NCBI GenBank assembly: GCA_031549385.1
Contig: JAVBPW010000001.1
Location: forward strand, 320,001-384,000
Direction: 5' to 3'
Length of the DNA stretch: 64,000 nucleotides
Source of the DNA: Alphaproteobacteria bacterium
Lineage (GTDB): Bacteria > Pseudomonadota > Alphaproteobacteria > Rs-D84 > SZUA-605
Below the pieces are notes generated by a model that saw only the letters and a list, made by a program, of their open reading frames with translations, had not been told where the DNA came from and did no database searches. This document shows positions 31,395 to 64,000 of this stretch, one piece after another. Made by a program: the position numbers and the translations under genes. How positions within the stretch are numbered: the first letter of the stretch is position 1; every line of letters starts with the position of its first letter.

Positions 31395-32582
31395 ATGGCA
31401 AAAGAAAAATTTGAAAGATCAAAACCTCACGTTAACGTGGGTACTGTTGGACACGTAGATCACGGTAAAACTACTACTACAGCTGCTATCGTTAAATACT
31501 TTGGTGTTGGTGCAGATAAAAGTAAAGGTGTTAATCAAATCGATAACACTCCAGAAGAAAGAGCTCGTGGTATTACTATTAATACTTCACACGTTGAATA
31601 TGAAACAGCAAATCGTCACTATGCTCACGTAGATTGCCCAGGACACGCTGACTATGTTAAAAACATGATCACTGGTGCTGCTCAAATGGATGGAGCTATC
31701 TTAGTAGTTTCTGCTTCTGATGGTCCTATGCCTCAAACACGTGAACATGTATTGCTATGCCGTCAAGTAGGTGTGCAAAAAATCGTTGTATTCATGAATA
31801 AAGTTGATCAAGTTAACGATCCTGAATTGTTAGACTTAGTTGAAATGGAAATAAGAGAATTGTTAAGCTCATACGAATTTGATGGCGACAATGCTCCTGT
31901 TATCCGTGGTTCAGCTTTGGCTGCTGTTGAAGGAAGAGATCCAGATATTGGTGAAAATGCTATCAAAAGATTATTAGAAGCTATTGATACATACTTCCCA
32001 ACACCAGAACGTCCAGTTGATAAACCATTCTTGATGCCAGTTGAAGACGTGTTTTCAATCACAGGTCGTGGTACAGTGGTAACTGGAAGAGTTGAAACAG
32101 GTGTTATCAAAGTTAATGATGAAGTTGAAATCGTTGGTATTAGACCTACACAAAAAACAGTTGTTACAGGTGTTGAAATGTTTAGAAAACTTTTAGACCG
32201 TGGTGAAGCTGGAGATAATTGTGGATTATTACTTCGTGGAACAAAAAAAGAAGATGTAGAACGTGGTCAAGTTTTGGCTAAAACAGGTTCCATCACTCCA
32301 CATAAGAAATTTGAATGTGAATGCTATATTTTGACAAAAGATGAAGGTGGACGTCATACTCCATTCTTCTCAAACTATCGTCCACAATTCTATTTCAGAA
32401 CAACTGACGTTACAGGAACAATCAAATTGCCAGATGGTGTTGAAATGGTTATGCCAGGAGACAATATCAAAATGACAATTGAATTGATTAATCCTATCGC
32501 TATGGCAGAAGGTCTACGTTTAGCTATCCGTGAAGGTGGAAGAACAGTAGGTGCTGGAGTTGTTACAAAAATTATTGAATAA
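31395..32582 (+). CDS. tuf: Elongation factor Tu
   Basis: [27 protein letters not shown]. Confidence 0.99.
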
Positions 32583-32603
32583 TTGTTTGTAAGACTAATA
32601 GTT

Positions 32604-32633
32604 AAAATGAGCCTGAAATATGGCTCATTTTTT
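32604..32633 (+). terminator. Intrinsic terminator after tuf
   Basis: AAAATGAGCC...GGCTCATTTTTT. Confidence 0.75.
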
Positions 32634-32763
32634 GTTGTTTGAAATACAAATTTTACAATATAAATAAAATTGACATTTTATTAATTATTTGTCAATTAAT
32701 TATTGACAAATGGTATTTTGTATGCTATATTATAATAGTATTAATAATAAACCTAAATAATAT

Positions 32764-33264
32764 ATGAAAAAGTTAGTTTTTTTGACCTTAATGGTCGTTG
32801 TGTTAGTGTTCGGAGTTAGTTGTAATCGTAATCAGATTGCGCAAAAGCAGGTTGCTTACCGTATAGTTGTTACTGGTGGTGATAAACCAGAAGTGTTCGA
32901 ACGGGTATTTCAAGAACCAGATGGTGCGTATCGGGATTATTTTGCTCAGAAAGCTCAAAACTTTTTGACCAAAGTGGAAAGAGACTATCTTTCTTTTATC
33001 GGATGTAAGCCGTTTGGAAGATTGGTTGTTTTTGAACTTTATCTGTTGGTTAATGGTGAAGAAGTTTGGATGCAAACTGAACGCCAATGGGTTTCGCCAT
33101 GTTCTGATTGTGGACAAAATCAGGCGGAAGTAAAACCAACACCAAAGCCAAATAGGCCGGTGCAGGTTAAGCCTAATCCTGGTAATCAACATCCTGTTGA
33201 AACTTACCCTTGCCCTCCGCAACAAGAAAGAACTATTCCTTTACCTGATAATAAATATTATTAG
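32764..33264 (+). CDS. Hypothetical lipoprotein with Pro-rich tail (stand-alone unit)
   Basis: Lipobox GVSC; TTGACA(32704)-17-TATATT; AAACCTAAA leader; terminator 33282-33307. Confidence 0.75.
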   Translation: MKKLVFLTLMVVVLVFGVSCNRNQIAQKQVAYRIVVTGGDKPEVFERVFQEPDGAYRDYFAQKAQNFLTKVERDYLSFIGCKPFGRLVVFELYLLVNGEEVWMQTERQWVSPCSDCGQNQAEVKPTPKPNRPVQVKPNPGNQHPVETYPCPPQQERTIPLPDNKYY

Positions 33265-33395
33265 AAGGTAAGGAGCTTATGAGCAGACCATCGGGTCTGC
33301 TTTTTTTATTTTCTAATCTTTGTTGACAAAATATTTTTTAATGGTTAGAATTAAGGTTCTATTTATAAATAAACTTAATTAAAAACCTAAAGAGT

Positions 33396-33662
33396 ATGAG
33401 CAAAATGGAAATTACCGCCCTTTCAATTGGCGGAGGAGATGTAGAAATCTTAAATGGAGTTCAGGTAGCTGTTTTCGGTGTAAATACATTTGAAAAAAAG
33501 CTGCCGGGTGGTGAAGATGCTGTAATGTATCAATTTGCGGAAGCAAACAAGAAGATGATTGATTATTATCATCGAAACCAACTTGCTGGTGAGTACCAGC
33601 TTGAACTTATATCGGCAAAAGGTGAGCCGGTTGTAATTAAGAACTCATTTCTAAAGAATTAG
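33396..33662 (+). CDS. Hypothetical protein (stand-alone unit)
   Basis: TTGACA(33323)-17-TAGAAT; AAAACCTAAA leader; terminator 33684-33718. Confidence 0.7.
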   Translation: MSKMEITALSIGGGDVEILNGVQVAVFGVNTFEKKLPGGEDAVMYQFAEANKKMIDYYHRNQLAGEYQLELISAKGEPVVIKNSFLKN

Positions 33663-33769
33663 TTTCTGTGTTTCAAATGGTGGTAGGTCGGAAGTCTTTG
33701 TATTTCCGGCCTATTTTTATTATTTTACAAAAGTACTTGACAAAATGAAAATAGATTACTATGTTATGC

Positions 33770-33930
33770 ATAGGTTTAGTATAAAAATTATAAATTACTT
33801 ACTACAAACAAAATTATAAAAATATTTTTTAGGTTTGATTATTATCGGGGTCCACGGGGACCCTTCTTTGACAAAACAGTTCATGTTTGTTAAGTTTATG
33901 TTAGGGGTTGCACGTGCAGCCCTTTTTTTA
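33770..33930 (+). ncRNA. Putative small RNA(s) carrying anti-leader sequence
   Basis: TTGACA(33737)-17-TATGTT; no ORF; two GC hairpins (33847-63, 33903-23) followed by pyrimidine/T tracts. Confidence 0.5.
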
Positions 33931-34106
33931 TTACTTGGATTGATTCCAACCTCTTGTTTTTTGAGTCGTAATTTAACATTTTAATTGCTTTTTTTTCAAG
34001 AATCGTTTATTTTTAAGAAATGCGAAAAAAAACCTTGATTTTTGGTGACTTTTCGTTTAACTTACTTTGGCGATTAAAAAAATCGCTTGGTTTTGTTTGT
34101 TAATTT

Positions 34107-34182
34107 AGGGGTGTAGCTCAGTTGGTAGAGCGTTGGTCTCCAAAACCAAATGTCGGGGGTTCGAATCCTCTCGCCCCTGCCA
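34107..34182 (+). tRNA. tRNA-Trp(CCA)
   Basis: AGGGGTGTAGCTCAG...CCA anticodon...GCCA; canonical position before secE. Confidence 0.97.
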
Positions 34183-47226: not shown

Positions 47227-47272
47227 AATTTTTAATAAAAACATTTTAAATAAATAATCAAACATAAATACT

Positions 47273-47569
47273 ATGGCTGATAATAGAAATAGGTATAAGT
47301 TTCAATTCAATGCTGGTAAAAGTGAGTTGGGACGACCAATAGTAGAGCAACAGGTAATTGATGGTGACTTGGTTTTATCAGACAACTGGTCACAAGAAAA
47401 CTTTGCTAGAGAAATTTTCCAAGACTTGATGGATGATTATAAAAAGTCATCTACAGCTAATGGTGACAGATCATTTAAGATTAAGTTTACTTTTAAACTT
47501 TTTGATACTTTACAACAAGAGGCTGTGAAAGAATATCAGAGGTATTGTTTTGTTTCAAGTTTAAAGTAA
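47273..47569 (+). CDS. Hypothetical ORFan (98 aa)
   Basis: SD-less leader ATAATCAAACATAAATACT-ATG; terminator AAAAGCGGC..GCCGCTTTTT. Confidence 0.6.
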   Translation: MADNRNRYKFQFNAGKSELGRPIVEQQVIDGDLVLSDNWSQENFAREIFQDLMDDYKKSSTANGDRSFKIKFTFKLFDTLQQEAVKEYQRYCFVSSLK

Positions 47570-55019: not shown

Positions 55020-55042
55020 TTTTGTATCCTCATAATTTTTAG

Positions 55043-55324
55043 GCGAAATATTATAAGCCGGATTCTGTACATTTGCATGCGACAATCATTTATCTTGAAT
55101 TACTGTTACCAGTAATTTCTTTGCGACCTACCACGAAGCAGTTGGGATTCCTGTAGCTTCTTATTTGGTCTTGCTCCAAGCAGAGTTTACCGCGTTTCAC
55201 CCTAACTTAATAGGCTCGTCTCTGTGGCACTTGTCCTCAGCTTGCGCTGGGTGGGTGTTACCCACTGCTTTATCCCATTGGAGTCCGGACTTTCCTCACC
55301 ATAGTGCGATTGTCCATATTTCGC
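55043..55324 (-). ncRNA. rnpB: RNase P RNA (compact)
   Basis: GAGGAAAGTCCGGACTC, GTGCCACAGA, GGTAAACTC, GGAGCAAG, ACAGAATCCGGCTTAT conserved blocks. Confidence 0.95.
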
Positions 55325-55362
55325 TATACTAACATAATATAAGATTAACATTTTTTCAAGGA

Positions 55363-59854: not shown

Positions 59855-59924
59855 TTTAAGTAGGTTTATAAAGTTAGACGGTCTTTTTTAAAAGGCTGTT
59901 TTTTGTTGAAATTTAAATAGTGGG

Positions 59925-60361
59925 TTTTATAATCAGGTGTGATATTAAAATTTCAAACCTAAAATTATATATGTTATGCTTAGATTGTTAAATATAGGAT
60001 CTTTGATCCAAGCAGCCTTGATTGTTTGCTTTTTTGTTTTTTTAAACAATCCTGAGATTGTTTTTTTTAAAAATGAATTTGTACAATGGGGAATATTTTT
60101 ATTTTTTCTGTTTTTCCTCATTTTTTATTTCAAAAAAGCTAATCATGAAGTTGATGATGATACGTATTTGGGATTGTATTTTTTTGTTCTTGTTGTATGG
60201 TTTGTTATTATGGGGTCATTTGCAACAAATAGTGGTGGAATTGATTATTTTGATTATCCTTATCACTGATTTTTTAAAAGGCTGGGTTTCCAGCTTTTTT
60301 TATTGTAATTTTGCCATTAGTTTTTATAATCAAGTGTGATATTAAAATTTCAAACTTAAAA
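59925..60361 (+). repeat. 40-bp direct repeat (promoter -10 plus leader), copies at 59925-59964 and 60322-60361
   Basis: TTTTATAATCARGTGTGATATTAAAATTTCAAACYTAAAA, 38 of 40 identical. Confidence 0.9.
59976..60269 (+). CDS. Three-TM hypothetical protein (paralog 1)
   Basis: 97 aa, Phe-rich; own promoter and terminator. Confidence 0.7.
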   Translation: MLRLLNIGSLIQAALIVCFFVFLNNPEIVFFKNEFVQWGIFLFFLFFLIFYFKKANHEVDDDTYLGLYFFVLVVWFVIMGSFATNSGGIDYFDYPYH

Positions 60362-60369
60362 CTTAAAAT

Positions 60370-60663
60370 ATGAATAAATATCTCTTAATGCTGGGTTGTT
60401 TTACCCTTATAGCATTTATTGTTATTTTCTTTTATTTCATTAATGTAGATTCAGGTATTTTTAAAGGTAATTTTTTTTTACATGCGTCTGCAATATGTTT
60501 TTTCTTTTTCATCGTTGTATATATTCGAATTACTAGGAATTTGTTCAATGATGGAATGTGGGTTGGAATCTATATATTGCTTTTGGTTATATGGTTTGTT
60601 TTAATTGTATCATATAACGGAGTGGAAACAATTATGATTGAAGTAAAAGAATTGTTCAAATAA
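60370..60663 (+). CDS. Three-TM hypothetical protein (paralog 2)
   Basis: 97 aa; shares FK.....C/IF.FF and G.Y...LV.WFV pattern with 59976-60269. Confidence 0.7.
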   Translation: MNKYLLMLGCFTLIAFIVIFFYFINVDSGIFKGNFFLHASAICFFFFIVVYIRITRNLFNDGMWVGIYILLLVIWFVLIVSYNGVETIMIEVKELFK

Positions 60664-60708
60664 AAAGGCTGGAATTTCCAGCCTATTTTTTATTTAAATC
60701 AGCTATTA

Positions 60709-62281: not shown

Positions 62282-62376
62282 GAAGGTCATAATGACAAAA
62301 AAGTCCTTAAAAAGCAAGAAAATAAGAAAAATTTGGTTGTTGTTGACTCGGTGGTGATTTTGTGATATAATGTGAT

Positions 62377-62417
62377 TCGTTAAAAAGATGTATTTGGGCC
62401 ATTAAGGCTCATTTTTT
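62377..62417 (+). ncRNA. Putative ~40-nt RNA, array unit A
   Basis: TTGACT(62343)-17-TATAAT; terminator TGGGCC-attaa-GGCTCA plus T6. Confidence 0.5.
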
Positions 62418-62452
62418 ATTGACTTAGTTAAAGTTTTGAAGTATAATGATTT

Positions 62453-62523
62453 TTAGCATAGCAAAAGCAGTAAGTTCATATATATATATAAATAGGTTTG
62501 ACCTCCGTACGCGGGGGTTTTTT
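62453..62523 (+). ncRNA. Putative ~70-nt RNA, array unit B
   Basis: TTGACT(62419)-17-TATAAT; terminator ACCTCCG-TACG-CGGGGGT plus T tract. Confidence 0.55.
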
Positions 62524-62604
62524 ATTGCCTATTGACAAGTGTTTGTTATTGTGATATATTCTAAGGACAGTTAAATAAATAATAAACCAAAAAACAAACC
62601 GCGT

Positions 62605-62727
62605 ATGTTTATACGAGCGCCCCTGTGGGCAGAATTCCAAAACCAAAAATGTAGCAGTCGCGCCAATATGCAAGCTACAAACAAGACGAACAGAAGTATT
62701 TCGACGTCACCGGTGAATTCGATTTAA
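62605..62727 (+). CDS. 40-aa small ORF, array unit C
   Basis: TTGACA(62532)-17-TATATT; A-rich leader; MFIRAPLWAEFQNQKCSSRANMQATNKTNRSISTSPVNSI; terminator CCCAGCC..GGCTGGG plus T tract. Confidence 0.4.
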   Translation: MFIRAPLWAEFQNQKCSSRANMQATNKTNRSISTSPVNSI

Positions 62728-62813
62728 TCTACCCAGCCATGAGATAGGCTGGGATTTTTTTATTAAAATTTTAAGGGTATTGACTCGTTACCTGATTCGT
62801 GATAGAATCTTAT

Positions 62814-62990
62814 TTACATTTAATTAGTAAACTAAACCTAAAAATAAACGTATGAAATAAAAAGCGGCTGGGCCGCAGAGAAAAAATTAAAAAATAAATA
62901 ATAAAAAACTTAAAACAAGTGCGGATTAGCACCAATTGAGCTTAAGCTCCAATAAAAACATAGAGGCGCCATTAGTGCGCCTTTCTTTTT
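62814..62990 (+). ncRNA. Multi-hairpin RNA with a Met-Lys-stop minigene, array unit D
   Basis: TTGACT(62780)-17-TAGAAT; three short hairpins in A-rich linkers; terminator AGGCGC..GCGCCT followed by TTCTTTT. Confidence 0.5.
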
Positions 62991-63074
62991 GGCTAAATTT
63001 TGACTTTTACATAAGTAACTTGACAAAAGTAAATAATCCCTTATATTGTTGGTATAAACTTAAAAAATATACAT

Positions 63075-63251
63075 ATGGACAAAAAAATTTATGGGGCAAC
63101 AATAGACCCCGATGGTGCAAAATGTTGCACCGAAACTGAAAGACCTCGTAATGAAGGTGTAGTAGCAAAGACATTGGAAGATGTTTTGCACTTTGAAGGA
63201 AAGGTTCCTGACCACTATCTGTGGTTAAGTATTTACAGGGTAAAGCAGTAG
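63075..63251 (+). CDS. 58-aa small ORF, array unit E
   Basis: TTGACA(63020)-16-TATATT; TAAACTTAAAAAA leader; MDKKIYGATIDPDGAKCCTETERPRNEGVVAKTLEDVLHFEGKVPDHYLWLSIYRVKQ; terminator 63276-63307. Confidence 0.55.
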   Translation: MDKKIYGATIDPDGAKCCTETERPRNEGVVAKTLEDVLHFEGKVPDHYLWLSIYRVKQ

Positions 63252-63344
63252 TGGAGTGTGAGTTTTAACTCTGTTTAAGGTGTCTTTTTTAGGCACCTTA
63301 TTTTTTTGCCTTGAATGGTTTTGGTATTTATGATATAGTGTTGT

Positions 63345-63523
63345 AACTTTTTACGATTAAACTAGCCCTTTGGGCTGCTTAAAGATCCTTATGGGATCGA
63401 TTACTTGCCAGCAATGGTAAGACTACGAATTTTATTTAAAATTAAATTTAATTAATCAATGAGAAAACAATTTTAATTGTTTTATTTATTGGCAAAGAAA
63501 GAGGCTCTTTTGGAGCCTCTTTT
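63345..63523 (+). ncRNA. Multi-hairpin RNA, array unit F
   Basis: TTGAAT(63311)-17-TATAGT; three GC hairpins; ends at a terminator shared with dnaN. Confidence 0.45.
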
Positions 63524-63527
63524 GATT

Positions 63528-64000
63528 TTATCTTCTTAATGGCATTAACACATATAAGAAATTGTTATTCTTTGGCTCTTGAATGATACATGGAGCAAGT
63601 CCAGTTGAGAATAAGAATTCAACTTCATCTGTTTTTATTTGTGATGCTGCTTCAAGAAGGAATTTTACTTTGAATGTTGATTCTAATGCTACATCACTGT
63701 TAAATTCTACTTCAATTTCTTCTGTACCACTTCCAAGTTCACTTGCACTTGCAGATAGTGTTAGTTTGTTTGTTTTTACAGACATCTTAATATCTTTGAA
63801 TTTATCGTTTGATACTGATGAGATTCTGTCTACACCTGCTGTGAATAACTTGCAGTTTACTTTTAATACGTTCTTGTTTCCTTTTGGAATTACAACACCA
63901 TAGTCTGGAAATTTTCCGTCAATTAACTTTGATGTCATTACTAAATTCTTAAATGAAAATCTTGTTTTTGTTTCTGATACTTCAATTGTTATATCTTCTT
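63528..64000 (-). CDS. dnaN: DNA polymerase III beta clamp (C-terminal part; start outside the window)
   Basis: SKLIDGKFPDY..VIP and terminal YVLMPLR. Confidence 0.95.
   Translation of the reverse strand, partial: EDITIEVSETKTRFSFKNLVMTSKLIDGKFPDYGVVIPKGNKNVLKVNCKLFTAGVDRISSVSNDKFKDIKMSVKTNKLTLSASASELGSGTEEIEVEFNSDVALESTFKVKFLLEAASQIKTDEVEFLFSTGLAPCIIQEPKNNNFLYVLMPLRR

Follow-up and report, generated by a model that had tools for sequence, protein, structure and literature searches.

What does a transcription unit without a gene do in the middle of a cassette array? Between the gene for EF-Tu (tuf, 31395-32582) and those for tRNA-Trp, secE, nusG and rplK, a stretch of DNA runs from a promoter to a terminator with no open reading frame (ORF) in between. 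The first-pass annotation had proposed that it encodes a small RNA (sRNA) antisense to a leader shared by other genes that lack a Shine-Dalgarno (SD) sequence. Unless a contig is named, all positions refer to the window, i.e. the whole 64-kb stretch of DNA that was analysed.

The gene-less unit and its setting

The genome to which the window belongs comprises 931 kb in 8 contigs, has 30% G+C and is 97% complete; the sequencing runs that contain the organism are invertebrate-gut samples. Its closest NusG proteins, 53-55% identical, come from uncultured proteobacterial, Pelagibacteraceae and Sphingomonadales genomes. NusG-anchored scans for close kin, one of metagenomes (nearest NusG at most 56% identical) and one of genomes, returned none.

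In this genome, the spacer between tuf and tRNA-Trp is made up of four tandem modules, all on the plus strand. In one same-family genome compared, the same spacer is ~280 nt long, gene-free and devoid of cassettes, with modules 1-4 (32583-33934) all missing, so orphan cassettes seem to have been added into intergenic gaps between core genes. The cassette array between tuf and tRNA-Trp is a lineage-specific insertion. Its parts are the following.

32703..33302, plus strand: cassette 1, with a promoter at 32703, the leader AAACCTAAA at 32749, a gene and a terminator at 33281
32764..33264, plus strand: gene of cassette 1, encoding a 166-aa, lipoprotein-like orphan
33323..33715, plus strand: cassette 2, with a promoter at 33323, leader motifs at 33371 and 33383 and a terminator at 33682
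33396..33662, plus strand: gene of cassette 2, encoding an 88-aa orphan
33737..33765, plus strand: promoter P3 (TTGACA, 17 nt, TATGTT), agreeing with the consensus at 10 of 12 positions
33771..33780, plus strand: weaker anti-leader-like word TAGGTTTAGT at the predicted 5' end, exact complement of 62831-40
33821..33846, plus strand: anti-leader stretch, the reverse complement of the extended leader consensus
33847..33870, plus strand: terminator T3, a 7-bp hairpin with one G-U pair, the loop ACGG and a weak U tract (UUCUUU)
33868..33897, plus strand: promoter P4 (TTGACA, 17 nt, TAAGTT), of the class type, read by eye
33903..33934, plus strand: terminator T4, strong, with a 9-bp stem followed by a T7 run, ~40 nt beyond T3

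Promoterless cassettes behind one common promoter, as in an integron-type array, were not found here. Rather, 33 of the 73 leader-class genes described below have a promoter of their own (at least 10 of 12 positions) within 75 nt, and each leader-class gene in the window has its own terminator. Four tyrosine recombinases are encoded in the genome.

The third module, from P3 to T3, is the unit in question. P3 has the extended TTGACAAA form typical of cassette genes and begins with TTGACAAAA; its -10 box, TATGTT, is mediocre to weak, and transcription is predicted to start at about 33771-33773. As in a generic sRNA gene, the unit possesses a promoter of its own but no ORF ahead of the terminator: in the interval that opens just past the -10 box, the longest frame beginning with ATG counts 17 codons and starts before the predicted start site. 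T3 was recovered by folding and a custom scanner, the standard terminator scan having listed none at this place. P4, which is missing from the promoter-scan list, leads directly into T4 and forms an empty cassette shell. The word TTGACAAAA is repeated at 33737 and 33868, and TTAAGTTT lies inside the -10 box of P4. Read-through transcripts, of ~160 nt, likely end at T4. The body of the unit is AU-rich and weakly structured (z = -1.4), with the seed partly paired to CAAAC at 33805-09 in the unit fold; the fold of the 163-nt read-through form reached z = -3.2.

Homology searches returned no related RNA. At Rfam gathering scores there was no match in the 64-kb window, and in E-value mode the best match within 33650-34110 attained 21.8 bits against a threshold of 45. 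Neither blastn nor tblastx found a paralogue of the unit in the genome. A DNA search of 40 same-order relatives yielded nothing related to it; the matches fell in the tRNA-Trp part of the query, except for two short low-complexity matches, one of which (in relative G010) is a gene start.

A metatranscriptome from the study of the likely source sample contains the organism. These RNA-library data are contigs, which cannot show strand, ends or level; they span 32762-33178 of cassette 1 and 33420-33687 of cassette 2 without a single difference. Over the unit, mean word depth in the RNA library was 0.22 (33717-33817) and 2.08 (33818-33918), with the DNA run flat at ~20. Small RNAs are often lost from RNA libraries, and we give these depths no weight in either direction.

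A genome-wide class of SD-less leaders

The common SD-less leader that the first-pass annotation had described in the cassette genes turned out to be real, genome-wide and larger than that reading had seen, and it is the bigger discovery. AAAC[T/C]TAAA stands ~18 nt before the ATG of about 86 SD-less, mostly orphan genes, amounting to about one gene in ten of the 0.93-Mb genome. At positions -25 to -1 of 918 crude ORFs, AAGGAG is the usual word (114 occurrences versus 3.8 expected), and ACTTAA is enriched as well (68 versus 7.8). AAC[CT]TAA is found no more than 40 nt upstream of 78 of the 918 ORFs, with a peak 18-22 nt before the ATG. Including small ORFs brought the number of motif-ORF pairs to 102, with the core [T/C]A-AAC-[T 85 / C 17]-TAA-A and a modal motif-to-ATG distance of 18 nt (25 of 102 pairs). 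Among the 98 unique starts in these pairs, 12 have an SD-like word at positions -18 to -3 and 86 have none. Within the window, the leader word occurs at 11998, 32749, 33371/33383, 47260, 59955, 60352 and 63056 on the plus strand and at 27525 on the minus strand.

Noncoding DNA harbours 88 copies of the 9-mer, 66 of them sense leaders before an ORF; the other 22 are at the level of mirror-word controls (39 in total). Spacing is tighter to the ATG (sd 3.5) than to the -10 box (sd 7.3), the latter distance being bimodal (7-9 and 18-22 nt), which speaks for an element acting at the RNA level. Nineteen of 33 class promoters start with TTGACAAAT or TTGACAAAA. The enhancer of T7 gene 10 may offer an analogy to such a leader.

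The genes behind the leader are for the most part orphans. No Pfam family was recognized in 59 of 63 class genes tested, the four exceptions being an OMP decarboxylase fusion, a weak SAICAR match, a dCTP deaminase and a KdsA-type enzyme, and a paralogue inside the class was lacking for 74 of 86. A phage origin of the leader class was considered and rejected, with 0 of 60 class proteins matching PHROGs.

We further find the leader signal to be private to this genome and absent from 440 related ones. The 9-mer pattern gave 46 matches here versus 13 for a reversed control, and 0-15 matches in each of 40 same-order genomes, comparable to a scrambled word. A longer pattern gave 31 matches versus 1 for its control; none of 400 genomes across the class exceeded 7, and controls were similar in the highest scorers checked.

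Searching 16S rRNA for a complement of the leader returned none (best, 8 of 10 positions with G-U allowed), and its 3' end carries an ordinary anti-SD. With no complement in 16S rRNA, the leader needs some other trans factor.

The closest parallel to the leader itself is the SAS/ESAS of Cluster K mycobacteriophages, an asymmetric conserved word just before the starts of genes of mostly unknown function (PMC3203893). As described there, SAS occurs in one orientation and is absent from other genomes, with a single opposite-orientation copy in four phages, and its binding partner, RNA or protein, is left open by the authors (PMC3203893). The leader shares with SAS a fixed short distance to the start, a single orientation, restriction to a subset of genes and privacy to its host genome. 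Yet SAS, 3-7 bp from the start, includes the core of an SD, whereas the leader, about 9 nt before the ATG, lacks an SD (there is no SD-like word in 86 of 98 leader-linked ORFs). Moreover, SAS belongs to phage genomes, and is not known to have an antisense RNA unit; the present leader resides in a bacterial chromosome, each gene having its own promoter and terminator.

Several further elements carry the leader word. At 59906-60700, two genes for 97-aa membrane proteins form a tandem paralogue pair in which promoter and leader are duplicated, one with the C and the other with the T variant. At C5:88222-88278, the promoter spacer of one leader-class gene contains the leader word in inverted form, which makes an inverted pair with that gene's own leader ~35 nt downstream, and a similar pair precedes the gene at C2:17798. 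On the minus strand at 27807-27830, the leader word is followed by an 11-codon ORF that runs into a terminator hairpin, i.e. a truncated cassette.

A second tandem array, of about six plus-strand modules, occupies 62330-63530 between truA and dnaN. It contains an empty shell (the promoter at 62343 fused to a terminator), the ORF-less unit B, a 58-aa cassette at 63075, a G+C-richer unit with a possible 40-aa ORF (62532-62760) and an unexplained 200-nt unit (63306-63525). An ORF-less promoter-to-terminator unit at 62780-62984 bears two sense copies of the leader word: the one at 62834 is followed only by ATG AAA TAA, and the one at 62906 by no ATG-started ORF. This unit may represent a cassette in decay or else a sponge soaking up the binding partner of the leader. 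Elsewhere in the window, RNase P RNA (class A; 55038-55325, minus strand) appears in a reduced form, since the full 367-position model is spanned in only 288 nt.

Complementarity between the unit and the leader class

All complementary matches listed in the first-pass annotation sit where it had placed them. TCAAACCTAAAA (59953-64), 12 nt upstream of the start codon at 59976, is complemented exactly by TTTTAGGTTTGA (33827-38); reverse-complemented, 33828-43 agrees with the leader of the gene at 47273 at 15 of 16 positions; and TAGGTTT at 62493-99 directly precedes the terminator hairpin of unit B. The leaders concerned are these.

11985..12012, plus strand: leader of a 95-aa membrane-protein gene, the second perfect 12-nt complement of the unit
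47251..47275, plus strand: leader of a 98-aa orphan gene, variant AAACATAAA, matching the unit at 15 of 16 positions
59953..59978, plus strand: leader and start of a 97-aa membrane-protein gene, the 12-nt target named originally

The gene at 59976 has a tandem paralogue at 60370, with the T variant of the leader at 60352; as the two are paralogous, part of what had been called a shared leader is simple paralogy. The two perfect 12-mers each hit the leader of an SD-less gene, at 59953 and at 11985. Counted as such, two perfect 12-mer complements on the plus strand of the window are nothing unusual: 300 dinucleotide shuffles gave 3.2 ± 2.5, and 209 of them reached 2. The original caveat that AT-rich, low-complexity matches arise easily by chance thus holds for bare k-mers; against the leader class as a whole, it does not.

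For the class-wide comparison, the 77 nt before the T3 hairpin served as the query and 73 class leaders as targets; the leader profile was likewise built from 73. Mean duplex energy was -13.45 kcal/mol with the 73 leaders versus -8.23 with 150 SD-type leaders. Two hundred shuffles of the unit averaged -8.84 ± 0.98 kcal/mol and 150 random noncoding 77-mers -8.11 (sd 1.51), and not one of either set (0/200 and 0/150) reached the energy of the unit. Across the 73 leaders, the positions at which the best duplex most often formed were all inside 33821-33846. Among 22 ORF-less promoter-to-terminator bodies the unit ranks first, the next reaching -11.01. A G/U-rich stretch directly before a terminator at C6:6569-6869 (plus strand) forms the second-best class duplex (-11.0 kcal/mol); the limits of that unit are doubtful, because an earlier terminator lies inside it.

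The minus strand of 33821-33846 scores 19.7 bits on the 27-nt leader profile, which is the top of 122 ORF-less matches of at least 9 bits genome-wide and exceeds the median of ORF-linked matches (15.4; n = 126). An order-3 Markov model, trained on noncoding DNA with the leaders included, predicts about 0.10 matches of at least 19.7 bits in all noncoding DNA, a rough value drawn from 3 matches in 6 Mb simulated; we observed 17, namely 16 leaders and the site in the unit. Having named complementarity no better than background as its own possible undoing, the initial proposal survives, at the level of the whole class, comparison with shuffles, noncoding 77-mers and the Markov expectation. The complementarity of the unit to the leader class is non-random and no simple low-complexity accident, and the unit is the only RNA-like element that mirrors the leader, in its own transcription unit.

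How the resemblance arose is a separate matter. It might be chance in AT-rich DNA, including a decayed plus-strand start of a cassette gene in which, with a 1-nt shift, the signal-peptide codons K-I-F-L-G-L-I-I-I happen to mirror the A-rich leader. Besides the raw k-mer matches at chance level, a degenerate sense word, ACTTA, precedes ATT/ATA at 33813-18 by 17-20 nt; relative G010 contains a 38-nt stretch resembling 33805-33843 (33 of 38 positions, one gap), which is the lipoprotein gene start MKNIFLGLIVLLFAGC; and at 18.8 bits, the runner-up among ORF-less profile matches lies antisense to a genuine gene start, MFFKFVLI. All four array modules are plus-oriented, so this reading needs no rearrangement. 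It has to contend, however, with the expectation of about 0.10 given above, obtained with leaders in the training set, and with the duplex energy that 0 of 150 random noncoding segments reach. Furthermore, 0 of 813 gene N-termini attain 13.1 bits in antisense (maximum, 13.0), although one attains 18.8 bits once 3 upstream bases are added, and the G010 protein has no homologue here beyond the signal peptide. We consider a chance origin unlikely. The G010 look-alike had also been a candidate for a homologous RNA and was rejected as a lipoprotein gene start.

Alternatively, the unit may be an inert relic, left when a cassette body was inverted, or inserted backwards, between promoter and terminator and then nearly all deleted; any plus-strand RNA would be a by-product without a selected role. 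ORF-less or truncated cassettes are indeed frequent, as seen in P4 fused to T4, in the 62343 promoter fused to a terminator, and in sense leaders followed by MK and a stop at 62834 or by 11 codons at 27821. With empty and decayed cassettes so common nearby, a gene-less module need not have a function. Inversion of a leader plus its ORF would also put the inverted leader beside a terminator, as in the unit at 33770-33870 and in unit B, and the minus strand of the former has ATA exactly at the modal +18 start-codon position. At least two events must nevertheless have spared 25 nt of near-consensus leader, at a score matched by just 16 true leaders of the 73 that built the profile, while promoter and ORF vanished and working plus-strand signals replaced them. 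The matching C occurs in just 17 of 102 leaders, which means that an A would be the likelier outcome of inverting a leader at random; both antisense copies stem from this minority variant. Convincing flanking inverted repeats were looked for and not found, and inverted leader copies are nearly absent from noncoding DNA, one other having been seen (C5:88222). On balance, we regard a relic as somewhat unlikely.

A reading from the minus strand, which the first-pass annotation had itself named as a danger to its proposal, would invoke either a 29-aa ORF (ATG at 33884) or an inverted leader serving a minus-strand transcript. A leader-like word, AAACTTAA, at 33897 lies 12 nt before the ATG of this 29-codon frame, and a weak promoter (9 of 12) is found at 33999-33970. 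But the motif before the ORF scores below 9 bits, the ORF would cross hairpin T3 and the anti-leader, and both hairpins have T runs on the plus strand only; as both terminators point the opposite way, the ORF is unlikely. The strong motif at 33836 is followed by no ORF, with ATA at +18 and a stop 9 codons later, and it has no suitably placed promoter, hairpin T3 lying where one would be expected. We rate minus-strand use as most improbable.

Barely more probable is that the leader is a DNA site for a lineage-specific protein, the inverted copy being one more operator and no RNA seed. Inverted copies do occur in or just before the promoters of two leader-class genes (C5:88222 and C2:17706), each forming an inverted pair with the gene's own leader. 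The strict orientation of the sense copies (66 of 88 noncoding copies before an ORF, the rest background) and a spacing tighter to the ATG than to the -10 box make a DNA operator unlikely, and no candidate protein was identified. Taken together, readings other than antisense RNA, relic and chance are quite improbable.

The idea that non-coding units collectively regulate the SD-less mRNAs was not borne out. Genome-wide, we count 31 ORF-less promoter-to-terminator units, some of them tRNAs, and TTA[AG]GTTT occurs in the unit at 33770-33870 only. The second unit put forward for such a layer is the following.

62419..62525, plus strand: unit B, with an 11 of 12 promoter, a ~50-nt body and TAGGTTTGA abutting the terminator

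With the class it pairs no better than background (-9.2 or -7.45 kcal/mol, according to where the unit is cut), and unit B is no class-wide anti-leader. Its minus strand shows a leader-like word with an ATG at +19 and 8 codons. A gene fossil (MNLLLLLC) was considered here but does not count as strong evidence: a similar pattern, M[NK]LLLL or MN followed by a hydrophobic run and C, turned up 12 times in six-frame translations, and the coding look is weak because MN or MK plus a leucine run is common. The suggested enrichment of TAGGTTT near terminators proved marginal, as TA[AG]GTTT was present in 10 of 297 terminator-upstream segments, a count that 7 of 300 shuffles also attained (mean 4.8 ± 2.2), and a mirror-image control word was present 6 times. 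The 9-mer before terminators counts 3 versus 0.24 (0 of 300 shuffles reach 3); two of the three are the units already proposed, and the third, at a contig end, is probable coding sequence.

A candidate antisense RNA against the leader class

With a probability of roughly 45%, we propose that the unit encodes a trans-antisense RNA against the leader class. The sequence shows the consensus matches of promoter and terminator, the leader class and the non-random complementarity; we infer transcription, the strand that is read, duplex formation in vivo and the sign of the effect. The original sRNA candidate stands insofar as it lies between a plus-strand promoter and terminators and is complementary to the class in its 3' part; none of the best duplexes falls at the 5' word (33771..33780).

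The gene-less promoter-to-terminator unit at 33737-33870 (to 33934 with read-through) would yield an AU-rich RNA of ~100-160 nt. A 22-26-nt stretch (33821-33846) just 5' of the terminator hairpin, the predicted seed, is the reverse complement of the private leader, which reads (a)ataaucAAAC[U/C]UAAAaaau. In this way, the predicted RNA may pair in trans with about -26 to -4 of some 70-85 orphan-gene mRNAs. Since an SD would normally sit in the paired region, the duplex should keep the 30S subunit from binding or else be open to attack by RNase, and the outcome would be that expression of the entire class is lowered at once. Opposite the variable U/C of the leader, the unit has a G (33832), which would pair with the C variant as G-C and with the more frequent U variant as G-U. 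Against this reading, only one unit qualifies as a class-wide anti-leader, and one RNA facing about 80 mRNAs would have to be abundant.

GcvB, among the closest known systems, depends on Hfq, is conserved in enterobacteria and acts on targets that keep their SD. Here, in contrast, no Hfq was found, nothing appears at Rfam gathering scores, the targets have no SD, and the pairing stretch measures 22-26 nt and abuts the terminator. Hfq (PF17209) and ProQ (PF04352) gave 0 matches in the 97%-complete genome, with control genomes matched, and a CsrA gene was not found there either; the chaperone and the curated RNA family model of an Hfq-dependent, GcvB-type RNA are thus both missing from what we recovered. 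According to the published description, GcvB (Rfam RF00022) silences translation-enhancing ACA or C-A-rich elements upstream of the SD (PMC3879156). The likeness lies in one G/U-rich stretch pairing with a C/A-containing element just upstream of the start in many mRNAs, and in a block of initiation for a whole gene set, which in the present case is a prediction.

The C-rich anti-SD sRNAs of Firmicutes (RsaE/RoxS) use short repeated motifs against a common element of the initiation region. sX13 of Xanthomonas is likewise described as carrying short repeated motifs that target an element shared by numerous mRNAs in their initiation region (PMC3771888). Unlike the unit, sX13 and RsaE/RoxS are portrayed as conserved RNA families with hairpin-loop seeds and G-rich or SD targets.

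A wider and more doubtful proposition is that of a private expression code, with ~80 orphan genes under a dedicated master antisense RNA (33770-33870). Each gene would carry a consensus promoter, the SD-less AAAC[U/C]UAAA leader 18 nt before the AUG and a terminator, and one small RNA would switch a recently gained or fast-evolving gene set on or off together. The sponge in such a scheme might be the ORF-less unit at 62780-62984 with its two sense leader copies.

These findings touch on two open questions, namely what marks SD-less mRNAs for translation and what holds newly gained orphan genes in check. If the pairing is false, the leader class still needs a trans factor other than 16S rRNA, and that factor would be worth finding. 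If the pairing is true, the unit would represent a compact, testable example in which a single RNA controls orphan genes class-wide, in an organism without Hfq or ProQ.
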